From the NCBI GenBank assembly GCA_035285865.1, contig JAYKHS010000006.1, positions 1-64,000 on the forward strand: 64,000 nt of DNA. The letters run 5' to 3'. Each line of letters starts with the position of its first letter. Position 1 is the first letter of the stretch. Shown here piece by piece: positions 60,001-64,000 of the stretch. Made by a program: the position numbers. Source of the stretch: Candidatus Sericytochromatia bacterium (lineage in GTDB: Bacteria; Cyanobacteriota; Sericytochromatia; S15B-MN24; VGJW01).

Positions 60001-63000
60001 GGTCCGTAGCCTTCACCGCCCATCGTGCCCTGGGGCATGCGCACCACCGCTGGTTCGGCCACGGCGGGCTTCGGGTCAGGACTCGGCTCGGGTGGCACCA
60101 CGACCTTCATGTAGAGGTCACGATCTTCCGGGAACAGCAGGCTCTCCAGGTCCACGGAGCTGCCCTTTCGCTTCAGGCGGATGAAGTCGCCGCCTTGTCG
60201 CGGGGGATCGGCCTGCACCGCAGGAGCCGCCGCCGGTGCGGCAGGTGCCGCTGCCTGCACCACGGGCCTTGCGACCGGTACGAACTCGTCCAGCCGGGGG
60301 ACCCGCGGTGTCGGTTCGGAGACGAAGCGGAAGGCCGGAGCCGGTGTTTCGCCTGGCTGTCTGGCATAAGGATTCGGCCTGGGCGCCGCAATCGGCGCTG
60401 CGCCGGGGGCCGGTGGCGGAGCAAGCCTGCCGGTGGCAGGAAGGGAGCGTTGGGGTTGGGGTGAAGGTGAAGGAGTTGCGGCAGCCACCACGGGGTCGGC
60501 GATGGCTCTCCCGGGCATGACCGGGGCCAGAGGTGACGGCGGCAGGGGATTGACGGCTGCAGGGGGCACGGGCGGCGGAGCGACGGGCACGGAGGCCTGT
60601 TCCGTGGGCGTTGGCTCGAGGGGCGTCTCCGCGGGAACGGGCTCTTCAGGAGAGGATGCGGTGACCGGTCCGGGCGCCGCTGGAGCCGTCTGGGGGGCCG
60701 TTTCGTTTGGCGTTCCCTCGACTGGTTGCGGTTCGTCGGGCAACAACGCCGCCATGGCCACCTCGGGCGCAAGGGGTTCGTTGGTGGCGGCCACCGGGAC
60801 TTCCGGTGCCGAAGCCTGCCCCCCGACCTCGCCGGGCTTGCCGGTCACGCCTGATGAGACGTCGACGACTTCACGAAGGCGGCCCTCCTCGAAGCGGAGG
60901 ACGTAGCGGGCTCCACCGGGTTGGCCATAAGTCATCTCTTCGACCTTGCCTTCGGTGCCGCCTGTCATCTGGGAGAGGGGCGTGCCCAGAAACTCGACGA
61001 CCTTCTCGGGGCTCATGCCCGGGCGGAGGTCGCCGATGTGCTCGACGGCCGGATGGGCGAGCGCAGGCAAGAGCTCGCCCATCAGGCTCGCGGCGAGGCC
61101 AAGCGCCAGCAGGGAGGAACGACGGGAACGCATCGTCTAGCCCTCCGCCAGCGTCTTCATCGAGAACCGACCTTGGCGGACCATGTCGCGGATTCGGCCG
61201 ACGACCTCGCGACGGGCTGCCTCGGCACCCTCCGGGTCCACCGGCTGGCCTTCCAGGCGCTCCAGCGCGTCCATCAGCAGGGCGCGACGCTTGTCCGTCA
61301 TCGCACCGAGCACGGCTTCCTGCAGGGGCTCCTCGGCGTCCCTGATGGCCTGGGCCACGATGCCCGGATCCAGTTCGCGCACGGCATCCTTGATGACGGC
61401 AGCGGGCAGGCGAGGCAGATCCACGAACGTCAGGTACAGCTCGCGGACCTTGCGCATCATGTCCGGGTTCTGGGTCTTCAGGTTGTCGAGAATGCGCTGC
61501 TCCGTCGTGGCGTCCGCATTGTCGAGGATATTGACGAGGAGGCCGACCCCATCCGTGACGACGGCGCTGAAGGACGGCGCCTGCGCCGCCTTCATGGCCA
61601 GTTTTTCGGCGATGCTCTCGAAGGTCGTCAGCGGGATCGATTCGAGTTCGCCAAGTGCGGTCGCCACAGGACCCTGCTCTTCGACGGGCCACTTGGCCAT
61701 CAGGCCGGCAGCCCGCTTGTATGCCAATTGGGACAAAACGAGGGCCCGGACCTTGGCGCCTTCGTCCTGCAGGATCCAGAGCACCTGAGAGTCATCGATG
61801 CGATCGAGGAAACCAAACGGAGCCAGCTTGCGCCCGGCCTGAGCGCCTTGCTCGGCCTTGGCGGCGATCAGCATCGGATAGGCCTCTTCGAGCACGGCCA
61901 TCGCTTCCTCGGAAGGTACCTCACGGGTCGAAAGCAGCGCGGCTTCCACCCGCGTGCGTTCGTCGTCCGCGAGGCCGGGGACCGTCCGGGCTGCCTGAGC
62001 CATGCCCAGCACCCGGAGCAGATTCGCGACCTTTTGCAGGCCCTCTTCCTTGCGGGCCAGACCGGCCACCATCGGAGCCGCGAGTTCGGGCTGCTCCAGC
62101 AGCATGGCCACGATTTCCTGGCGAAGCGCCTGCAAGGCCCTGGCGGCCCGCTGTTCCTCGGCTGTGGGACCCGCAGGCTGCGTCGGCTCCTTGGTCTGCT
62201 GGGGCAGCAGGGCGGAGGCCCACGCCGGCGGCGCCTCTGCGCCCGGTGTGGCGTCCGGCTTGCGCTTGCGCAGCAGGGCGAACAGCCCCATCACGAGGCC
62301 CAGACCAAGCAGCCCGAGCAGCGCAGCCAGCAGGTTGCGGATGGTCGGGTCGGTCTCGCCGGCCACCGGTGCGTTCCCTGCGGCAAGCGGGGCTGCGAGC
62401 GGCAGACCCGATGCCGCGGCCACGCTGTCCGTGCCCGTCGCCGCGATGGCTGCGGCTTTCTGCAGCGTGGGCGGGAACTGGCGGTTCATGATCTCCAGGC
62501 TGTCTCCGCGGGCGAAATTGAGATCCGCCTTCTGGTAGATGAGCTTTTCGATGAAGTCACGCTCTTCCTGAGCGAGATTCTTTTCGATGACGGTCAGGAT
62601 TCGGACACGGTCGATGCGCAGACCGCTGACTTCCGAAGATGGGACGGCCGCAACCTGCTGGCCCACCGGGGGCAGGGAGGGTGGCGCCGCAACGGGCTGC
62701 GCCGCAGGGCGCGCCGCCGCCGGACGCGCCGGTAGCCCGGGCAGATCCACCTCTTCGGGATCCAGCGGTTCCGTGCCGGGCAGGTTCGCCGTCAGGGCGG
62801 GCTGGAGCGGGGGAGGCAGGACCTGCAAGGGCTTGGGTGCCTGACCGGGGAGGCGCTGCATCCTGACCCGCACCTGCACGATGAAGCGGTCATTGCCCAG
62901 ATAGGAGGCCATGGCCTGTTTCAGGCTCTCCTCCAGCAACTTCTCGTAACTGAGTTCCTCGAGTACGACCCCGTCATGCCGGGCGTCCGCGGGCCCAGCA

Positions 63001-64000
63001 GGCAACTGGGCAAGAGCGGGCTGGGGCAGCGCCGCCGGCAGCAGGGCTGCGACCGCCACGCAGGCCGCACGCAGGGCGCCAGCGGTCGGCAAGACACTCG
63101 TCGGAAGGGGCCAAGGGGCTCGCATGCGGGTCACCGGGACAGAGGTTCGGGGAAGGATCTTTCGGCCAATCCGGACCTAGGATCAGGCGACCGGAGCTGT
63201 GTTGGACATCACCATACCCCATGCGCCATGCTCTCAAAAGCCATGAGGGAGAGAACCGTCCGCAACCGGCGGTCCCGGGGCCGGATCTGGTACCTGGATG
63301 GTCACGCCACGACGCCCGTCGCCGACGAGGTCCTGACGGCCATGCTGCCATGGTTCTCCGAGCGGTTCGGAAATCCGTCCTCCGACGGCCACGCATGGGG
63401 GTGGGAGGCTCGCGGAGGCCTTGATGCGGCCCGAGAGCGCTTGGCTGGCTTGATGGCCGTGGAGCCTCGGGAAGTGGTTTTCACCAGTGGGGCCACGGAG
63501 GCCAACCATCTGGCCCTGATGGGTGTCCTCGAGGCGGCGGGTCCCGGTGCGCGACTGATCTGCCAGCCCACCGAGCACGCCTCGGTGCTCGAGGTGGCCG
63601 AACGTTGGGCGCGCGCGGGCGGGACCGTGACGATGCTGCCTGTCGACGGCCAAGGGCGTGTCGCGCCGGAGGCCCTCGAGGCCGCCCTGCGCCAGCCTGC
63701 AGCCCTGGTATCGGTGATGGCGGCGAACAACGAAATTGGCACCCTCCAGCCCTTGGCCAGTCTGGGCCACATCTGCCGGGCAGCAGGGGTGCCGTTGCAT
63801 GCCGATGCCGCTCAGGTACCCGGACGCCTGCCCCTGGCAGACGTGGCCCCCCACGTGGCGATGTTGTCGTTGTCCGCCCACAAGGCCTACGGCCCGAAAG
63901 GGGTCGGCGTGCTGATGGTGCGCCGGCGAGGGCCTCGTGTCCGATTGGAGCCGCAGGTTCCCGGGGGTGGGCAGGAGTGGGGACGACGGGGCGGAACCGT

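Follow-up and report, generated by a model that had tools for sequence, protein, structure and literature searches.

The window, a stretch of 64,000 nucleotides from a Candidatus Sericytochromatia bacterium (contig JAYKHS010000006.1, positions 1 to 64,000), carries on its reverse strand, at 61137..63125, a gene with the domain order RBM3, transmembrane helix, FliF_C and FliG (P0001), which forms one open frame of 662 aa from its ATG. The protein starts with a probable Sec signal peptide (residues 1–39; 63009..63125), recognized from the sequence and presumably cleaved after its A-L-A end before Q40; A39 is nearly invariant among 17 relatives. About 11 residues past this peptide begins the RBM3 domain, whose first half, a helix and a strand (51–91; 62853..62975), was delimited by an AlphaFold2 model and structure comparison. 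At the position of the FliF beta-collar the model shows a disordered Pro-rich insert (20 Pro in 77 residues; 92–168; 62622..62852), within which the family alignment marks an LPGLP motif (128–132; 62730..62744). The second half of RBM3 (169–218; 62472..62621), defined by Pfam, model and alignment, carries an RGD motif at 206–208. Sequence and family alignment place a single transmembrane helix at 265–285, followed by RKRK at 286–289 (62259..62333), and alignment and model assign residues 322–357 (62055..62162) to the C-terminal FliG-binding helices of FliF. The FliG part, assigned by Pfam and alignment, comprises a shortened FliG_N (362–432; 61830..62042), FliG_M with a degenerate EHPQ...R motif (433–515; 61581..61829) and FliG_C with the torque helix (526–655; 61161..61550), in which K612 corresponds to E. 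coli R281 and D619 to D288. On the same strand, a second gene of the operon (59439..61133) begins 3 bases past the stop of the fusion and encodes an exported protein of 564 aa that contains a conserved segment of three strands and, at its C-terminus, a TPR region, and a third (58289..59404) encodes 371 aa in which domain and fold comparison revealed an LpoB/TolB_N/FlgO-like domain and a C-terminal beta-barrel. A promoter and terminator scan at this operon gave nothing beyond chance level.

All three FliG domains exceeded their Pfam cut-offs (FliG_C 547–655, 3.5e-17; FliG_M 446–515, 4.4e-9; FliG_N 362–422, 2.3e-7), and YscJ_FliF_C gave a faint match (0.021) at residues 167–217. The FliG_N match spans positions 4–64 of a profile of 104 and about 30 residues of canonical FliG_N are absent, so the initial annotation, which had listed complete FliG_N, FliG_M and FliG_C, was right about the presence of all three domains and wrong about the completeness of the first. 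PF01514, which covers TM1, RBM1 and RBM2 of FliF, had no match in the protein, while TM2 and the FliG-binding tail of FliF are both present; the helix with its RKRK had been described one residue off (266–286), and the tail is an addition to that description. P346 in the tail aligns with a proline of canonical FliF tails, and Trp comes next in 71 of 135 family members. AlphaFold2 on a 135-sequence alignment reached a mean pLDDT of 80, with the RBM core mostly at 89–97 and the insert, which replaces the beta-collar, below 50. Residues 50–218 of the model superposed on FliF RBM3 with a Z score of 14.8 and an rmsd of 1.6 Å over 97 residues (8z5v) and with Z 14.2 (6scn), against 8.8 for PrgK and 8.1 for SpoIIIAG. 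By sequence alone, the family profile matched Salmonella FliF 225–558 at E 8.9e-11, and its best PDB sequence match was the engineered FliF-FliG 8z4d (E 1.6e-52). The gene lines up colinearly with the 3' half of fliF followed by fliG, and the protein is the C-terminal half of FliF joined to FliG in one membrane protein, at 1:1. The RBM3 domain and the insert at the collar position, both named in the initial annotation, are borne out by these results, as is its 1:1 fusion, to which colinearity, profile match, fold and tail alignment all point.

This architecture is shared by 135 aligned proteins with 16–88% identity to this one, and the fusion is therefore not an assembly artefact. An internal hydrophobic helix was found in 133 and a hydrophobic N-terminus in 122 of these proteins, and L, P and G of the LPGLP motif are kept in 130, 132 and 130. 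The relatives are spread over many phyla, with Vibrio, Elusimicrobiota, Fibrobacterales, Bacteroidota, Calditrichota and Deltaproteobacteria among the named carriers. Homologue searches with a word index extended to no more than 10 close relatives, and the only FliG that a plasmid search returned was canonical. In a sample of 301 genomes of the phylum, every unbroken fusion that was found belonged to family f1 or f3. Low identity to canonical FliG and a score of 73.3 bits against the NCBIfam fliG model TIGR00207 (cut-off 226.7) could suggest a decaying relic or a misassembly, but this is hardly tenable for intact frames, one layout in so diverse a family, near-invariant motifs and a gene order conserved across phyla. 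Roles for the torque-helix residues R281, D288 and D289 are given in PMC12505986; the equivalent of R281 is basic in 124 of 135 family members, those of D288 and D289 are acidic in 47 and 51, and those of K264 and R297 are not conserved across the family. The weak conservation of rotor–stator charges other than that of R281 counts against a motor. The EHPQ...R motif of FliG is its FliM-binding motif. In this fusion it reads EGAK...A, and Q is kept in 4 of 135 family members; with the motif lost, the switch-subunit role proposed earlier is unlikely. In a FliG tree, all 28 fusion rows were set apart from the canonical ones by a 100/99 branch, the tree being unrooted and holding only seven canonical rows, with five of the 11 intended (E. 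coli among them) removed by length and score filters. If the fusion branch were sister to flagellar FliG and not nested in it, these proteins would offer a living model of a pre-flagellar motor.

Compared with the flagellar motor core (FliF, FliG and MotA/MotB or PomA/PomB), the fusion keeps the RBM3 fold, the second transmembrane helix, the FliF_C tail, the N, M and C domains of FliG in fliF-fliG order and an R281-type torque residue, but it is one chain without TM1, RBM1, RBM2, beta-collar and FliM-binding motif, and its FliG_N is shortened. Canonical FliG, in contrast, is soluble and has about 330 aa. The engineered FliF-FliG proteins of Salmonella and Vibrio (8z4d) resemble it in having the FliF tail in frame with FliG_N, yet they retain the whole of FliF and work within the flagellum. 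According to PMC10941966 such fusions form rings, and the FliG part of a ring without FliM and FliN is floppy, which counts against a motor. The initial annotation had placed fusions of this kind only in the laboratory; however, a natural one with FliG_M only has been described in Chlamydiaceae (Bergeron 2016, PMC4768692). Although also a natural single chain, the chlamydial protein has about 330 aa, two transmembrane helices, RBM2 and FliG_M only, with no torque domain, and it resembles the FliF of the second flagellar set of this genome, not the 662-aa fusion. SpoIIIAG and SctJ/PrgK share the RBM fold (Z 8.1–8.8), SpoIIIAG also being a single RBM with an insert, but they have no FliG part and match much more weakly than FliF. 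Since RBM1 and RBM2 are absent, the fusion is no direct test of the MS-ring/C-ring symmetry mismatch, for which it had been put forward.

The fusion, the TPR protein, the LpoB/TolB_N-like barrel protein and a dedicated MotA and MotB form a five-gene module, contiguous in the order fusion-TPR-barrel-motA-motB in 7 of the 10 Sericytochromatia neighbourhoods read; in the relative genome G027, motB lies upstream of the fusion and motA downstream of the barrel gene. Of 52 metagenome loci from a distant clade, 35 extended far enough downstream of the fusion to show its neighbours, and all 35 carried the barrel and TPR genes, 30 of them motA and motB as well; the lack of linked motAB in the other five counts against a motor. 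The TPR and barrel genes 3' of the fusion are this genome's best matches to the distant module families (E 3.8e-16 and 1.3e-13). The N-domain of the barrel protein resembles FlgO and the LPHT ring, and the protein is probably an outer-membrane partner. A complex prediction with the periplasmic domain of the fusion, the TPR protein and the barrel N-domain scored 0.09 against a mark of 0.32. The barrel gene is present in exactly the 17 of 47 class genomes that carry the fusion, a co-occurrence based on two families and a single loss (in G019, a genome 91% complete), for which one deletion could account; operon-type MotA is in the same nine of the ten f3 genomes.

The initial annotation assigned the fusion to the second flagellar set as its FliG, which the gene distribution does not support: second-set FliF is present in 45 of the 47 class genomes, among them 28 that show no orthologue of the fusion, whereas the fusion travels with TPR, barrel, MotA and MotB genes of its own and lies in this genome on a different contig from second-set FliF and FlhA. 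Incorporation into the MS ring of that set, likewise claimed, is unsupported. Second-set FliF has RBM1–3 and already carries a fused FliG_M without FliG_N or FliG_C, so that the two proteins look complementary, and this genome offers that set no other FliG_C; the fusion might then co-assemble with it and supply FliG_C to a mixed ring, which could ease the symmetry mismatch. Some second-set FliFs are also the top scorers on the N-terminal profile of the fusion (90 and 85 bits; the canonical FliF of this genome reaches 59). We consider such a ring very improbable, as scores of second-set and canonical FliF overlap widely (16–90 and 30–69 bits), pairwise BLAST between fusion and second-set FliF was not significant, and in five genomes of family f6 that keep the second set neither a FliG_C domain nor flagellin was detected; moreover, 37 flagellar queries had no match within the 52 distant loci. 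As an idea, the fusion gene and second-set FliF could be complementary halves of one duplicated fusion.

Our preferred reading, which we put at about 70%, takes the fusion as the one-piece rotor of a stand-alone envelope motor, powered by ions and descended from the core of the flagellar motor; this motor would be unswitched and export-free, driven by MotAB with putative rotation and acting on outer-membrane partners. Like the flagellar core, the module has a MotB with plug and OmpA domains; unlike it, it has no export, rod, hook or switch genes, and TPR and barrel partners instead. Plug and OmpA domains are listed as traits of flagellar-type stators in PMC12505986, a type that the module stator fits, with a conserved Asp in MotB and a channel domain in MotA. 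The equivalent of MotA E98 is acidic in 12 of 16 module MotAs and that of R90 basic in 5 of 16. In this genome the candidate stator is a motB-motA pair on contig C28 (12470–13960), whose MotA groups with the operon MotA of G027 (support 99/98); that it is unlinked to the fusion counts against a motor. In the proposed motor, the protein would be exported by Sec and its signal cleaved, so that RBM3 would face the periplasm and FliG the cytoplasm, with the single helix spanning the inner membrane, as the observed features suggest. The RBM3 domains, given their fold, may assemble into a ring resembling the S-ring of FliF, while homology suggests that the FliF tail would co-fold with FliG_N and that adjacent FliG domains would stack into a cytoplasmic gear, to be turned by the dedicated MotA/MotB stator whose genes and residues are described above. 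Because the FliM-binding motif is absent, there would be no C-ring switch and the direction of drive would be fixed. Without RBM1/2, beta-collar, rod and export gate, force would pass through the Pro-rich arms with their LPGLP motif to the TPR and LpoB/TolB_N-barrel proteins at the outer membrane.

Canonical FliG also occurs in 16 of the 17 Sericytochromatia genomes carrying the module, so these genomes do not demonstrate that the module is independent of flagella. It could be an accessory of the canonical flagellum, providing a second choice of rotor and stator, together with outer-membrane parts akin to the H-ring, for certain conditions. The likeness of the barrel N-domain to FlgO and the LPHT ring and the members in flagellated Vibrio would suit such a role, which we nevertheless regard as quite unlikely for a protein without FliM-binding motif, beta-collar or the RBM1/2 to house an export gate. 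Members occur in Elusimicrobiota and Bacteroidota, motAB and fliG without structural flagellar genes are reported for Elusimicrobiota in a preprint (10.1101/2022.07.08.499144), and no module was seen in 23 flagellated class genomes. It is also unlikely that the module is a non-rotating transducer or sensor, in which MotAB would push a tethered FliG oligomer and either pull on the outer membrane as TolA/TonB do or report load or ion-motive force. The linkers of TonB and TolA resemble the Pro-rich arm, a partner bears the TolB_N/LpoB-like domain, the rotor–stator charge set is kept in part only and the module has no rod or bushing genes; against this, ring-building RBM3, FliG_M and FliG_C are all kept, and MotB has the flagellar-type traits cited above.

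Given a motor, its most likely job, at about even odds, is moving or releasing outer-membrane or surface proteins. We propose this because a barrel with a PorV/PorQ motif and a large lipoprotein share the distribution of the module, the former occurring in the same 17 of 47 genomes as the fusion and the latter in 16 of the 17 module genomes and in none outside. All six barrel members matched NF033709 (PorV family; best E 3.5e-9), the listed member with 20 bits, where the cut-off is 90, and over the N-terminal motif only. By sequence, neither the barrel nor the lipoprotein had a solved relative; PF14349 (SprA_N) matched 0 of 47 genomes and no control genome either; and no PorV-like barrel cluster lay beside the module in the metagenome loci, which counts against the surface-protein job. 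The proposed arrangement, an ion-driven inner-membrane motor acting on outer-membrane parts, is like that of the type IX secretion/gliding motor (GldLM, GldKN, PorV, SprA) and of Tol-Pal and Ton, and a PorV/PorQ-motif barrel and a TolB_N-like domain are among the module partners. Unlike these systems, the module has MotA/MotB as its stator, with a putative inner-membrane FliG ring, and no TolA/TonB gene.

To our knowledge, flagella are the only machines in which MotAB is known to drive a FliG ring. Three ion-driven rotary motors are listed in PMC9127263. No description of the module was found in searches of the open-access literature, and the supplementary tables of PMC12505986 may list these stators. 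The broader proposition seems to us evenly balanced: a widespread rotary machine, the mirror image of the injectisome, in which a five-gene flagellar rotor and stator without export, rod, filament or switch would act on outer-membrane proteins, for surface-protein export or gliding, through a rotor ring that self-assembles from a single type of chain. If true, a five-gene motor without export apparatus would constitute a new class of envelope motor, explain orphan fliG and motAB genes in non-flagellated phyla and inform the question of how rotor and stator became associated. It would also provide a minimal system for rebuilding torque in vitro, with one rotor chain, one stator and no switch. 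Cultured Vibrio species carry relatives of the fusion, which makes the motor reading testable.

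The fusion gene is a single open frame on the minus strand (61137-63125, 662 aa), and Pfam assigned residues 362–655 of its product to FliG_N, FliG_M and FliG_C. All three FliG domains named in the initial annotation were thus recovered, although about 30 residues are missing from FliG_N. Pfam further gave a faint match of residues 167–217 to the FliF C-terminus. The N-terminus is a hydrophobic leader with an A-L-A end at residue 39, and a second hydrophobic helix (residues 265–285) is followed by RKRK. In an AlphaFold2 model based on 135 aligned family members (mean pLDDT 80), residues 50–218 matched FliF RBM3 with a Z score of 14.8 (rmsd 1.6 A, 97 residues), while PrgK (Z 8.8) and SpoIIIAG (Z 8.1) fell far below. 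The family profile matched Salmonella FliF 225–558 (E 8.9e-11), its top PDB match was an engineered FliF–FliG fusion, and in genome runs it spanned canonical fliF–fliG pairs colinearly with one stop within, for example at G000:C22:118057-119862 (G000 being the genome of the window). FliF tails of E. coli, G000 and Curtobacterium aligned to residues 322–357, directly after which FliG_N begins. The RBM3 fold match, the colinear profile alignment and the FliF tail running into FliG_N therefore identify the fusion as fliG preceded in frame by the 3′ half of fliF, a signal peptide standing where FliF has TM1-RBM1-RBM2, confirming the proposed chimera; the presence of the FliF half is certain. The protein is neither a canonical FliF nor a canonical FliG, and is predicted to work like a FliF/FliG core. 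At the beta-collar position lies a Pro-rich insert of low model confidence, whose LPG core is kept in 130–132 of the 135 members. Contrary to what the initial annotation had supposed, a natural FliF–FliG fusion as such is not new, because the accessible text of Bergeron 2016 (PMC4768692) describes a FliF–FliG_M fusion in Chlamydiaceae.

The fusion had also been assigned to the second, non-canonical flagellar set of G000, whose genes, called with a custom script, are scattered over contigs C26, C22, C28, C5 and C30, the canonical flagellar operon lying on C22. This assignment did not hold. The second-set FliF type, which has FliG_M as its C-terminal domain (E 2e-12), occurs in 45 of the 47 class genomes (two among them cut by contig ends) versus 17 (one partial) for the fusion. 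In five genomes of family f6 with this FliF and FlhA, FliG_C and flagellin were looked for and not found, indicating that the second set does not need the fusion. A mixed ring, with the fusion built into the MS ring as first proposed, seems highly improbable given these differing distributions.

The fusion stands outside the second set and heads a module of its own. In the window, it is followed downstream by a TPR gene and then a gene for a 371-aa protein, whose model (pLDDT 67) comprises an LpoB/TolB_N-like domain (Z 11.1) and a beta-barrel (Z 9–10 to NspA and OprF, 11.6 to a soluble barrel). The barrel gene occurs in exactly the same 17 genomes as the fusion. Among the ten relatives' neighbourhoods examined, the order fusion-TPR-barrel-motA-motB was found in 7/7 from family f3, and two from f1 hold the first three genes only; in genome G027, motB lies upstream of the fusion and motA downstream of the barrel. 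Because the MotA of an unlinked motB-motA pair on C28 of G000 groups with the G027 operon MotA (99/98 support), this pair is likely the stator for the fusion in G000. There (G000:C28:12470-13960) motB precedes motA, opposite to the usual order; this motB-motA order equals the G027 arrangement minus the fusion, TPR and barrel genes. Genomes G014 and G016 have both stator types adjacent to each other. The TPR partner in the window (59439-61133) is 564 aa long, whereas its counterparts in most relatives have about 210 aa; it additionally carries a BamE-like segment at its N-terminus and a repeat stretch rich in Ser, Arg and Asp.

Close homologues of the fusion carry the source label Candidatus Sericytochromatia. 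When 1.84 billion representatives were searched, the best 150 were mostly 550–770 aa long with the same layout; 30 of these roughly 150 were looked up, revealing relatives in Vibrio, other Gammaproteobacteria, Elusimicrobiota, Fibrobacterales, Bacteroidota, Calditrichota and Deltaproteobacteria, and Atlas clusters pointed to Balneolota and Bdellovibrionota as further candidate hosts. One distant clade (23/135 sequences) supplied 52 metagenome loci. With profiles derived from those same loci, barrel and TPR genes were detected in all 35 loci with at least 3.6 kb downstream, and motA and motB too in 30 of them; the window's TPR and 371-aa genes were the top G000 matches of the distant-clade profiles. 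None of the 52 loci was matched by any of 37 flagellar queries. A canonical flagellum is also present in 16 of the 17 module genomes of the class set, which counts against a stand-alone motor and would suit a flagellar accessory, a role we consider improbable. Soluble FliG-like proteins of about 310 aa with the same shortened FliG_N (P0061, P0075, P0140, P0151, P0155 and P0160) group with the fusion family, apart from canonical FliG; one cluster member comes from Marinimicrobia.

In E. coli FliG numbering, the R281 position is basic in 124/135 fusion-family members. Of 16 module MotAs, 12 have an acidic residue at the MotA E98 position. The other charges are weak: MotA R90 is basic in 5/16, D288 and D289 are acidic in 47/135 and 51/135, and K264 and R297 are not conserved. 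Therefore, one of the two rotor–stator charge pairs named in the accessible text of PMC12505986 is well preserved in the module. The EHPQ motif retains E in 127/135 and Q in 4/135, and the partner Arg is gone. A 100/99 branch of the FliG tree, which is unrooted and thinly sampled, parts seven canonical rows from every fusion row.

We consider the fusion probably the rotor of a stand-alone motor (roughly 70%). Starting from the observed domains, residues and gene linkage of the module, we infer its ring, rotation and contacts: RBM3 would assemble into a ring with the fused FliG as a gear beneath the membrane, the dedicated MotA/MotB would rotate this gear in a single direction, and at the outer membrane the TPR and barrel proteins would receive the force through the LPGLP arms. 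Against this reading, rings built from engineered fusions are floppy when FliM/FliN are missing, according to the accessible text of PMC10941966, and a linked stator is absent from 5/35 metagenome loci. A non-rotating transducer appears unlikely.

One lead points to the purpose of such a motor: the 17/47 genomes that have the module are also those encoding a barrel whose N-terminal motif is of the PorV/PorQ type, and a lipoprotein of 816 aa is encoded by 16 of these 17 and by none of the others. This shared distribution, based on two families, suggests that the module handles surface proteins. The PorV-motif barrel was not seen adjoining the module in the distant-clade metagenome loci. In G000 (C28:83745-87604, locus L209, minus strand), the barrel has 470 aa and the lipoprotein, of no known family, lies upstream. 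An Elusimicrobiota preprint (10.1101/2022.07.08.499144), in its accessible part, reports motAB and fliG without flagella and terms their role unclear. No description of the module was found in searches of an open-access library, supplements aside, including the accessible portions of PMC12505986 and its preprint, PMC13277936, PMC12204202, PMC10941966 and PMC9127263. The module seems to represent a previously undescribed type of machine, of predicted function.

The second-set FliF of G000 (C26:117473-119395; L018:9474-11393, plus strand) is a full FliF with RBM1-3 plus FliG_M; it resembles the Chlamydia protein in its FliG_M fusion but differs in having RBM1-3. G000 yielded neither a second FlgK nor a second FlgL. 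The f6 genomes (G028, G029, G031, G032 and G033) have FliF–FliG_M, FlhA and one MotB, with FlgI in 3/4 tested; since flagellin and FliG_C were not found there, their second set resembles a type III export machine that derives from a flagellum and has no filament. On the minus strand of locus L019 in G000, a 460-aa second-set protein (C22:6803-8185) whose N-terminal part is hydrophobic and whose C-terminus carries a FliM/FliN SpoA domain is possibly a membrane-anchored C-ring protein, and at C22:9134-10739 the second-set FlgE (379 aa) has no FlgE_D2 match and FlgD has just 138 aa. Families f2, f3 and f7 contain several additional open frames matching solely the cytoplasmic half of FlhA, with at most nine matches per genome, and G000 encodes a flagellin-like protein of 1008 aa with a very large central insert (C14:186055-189081, L027, minus strand).
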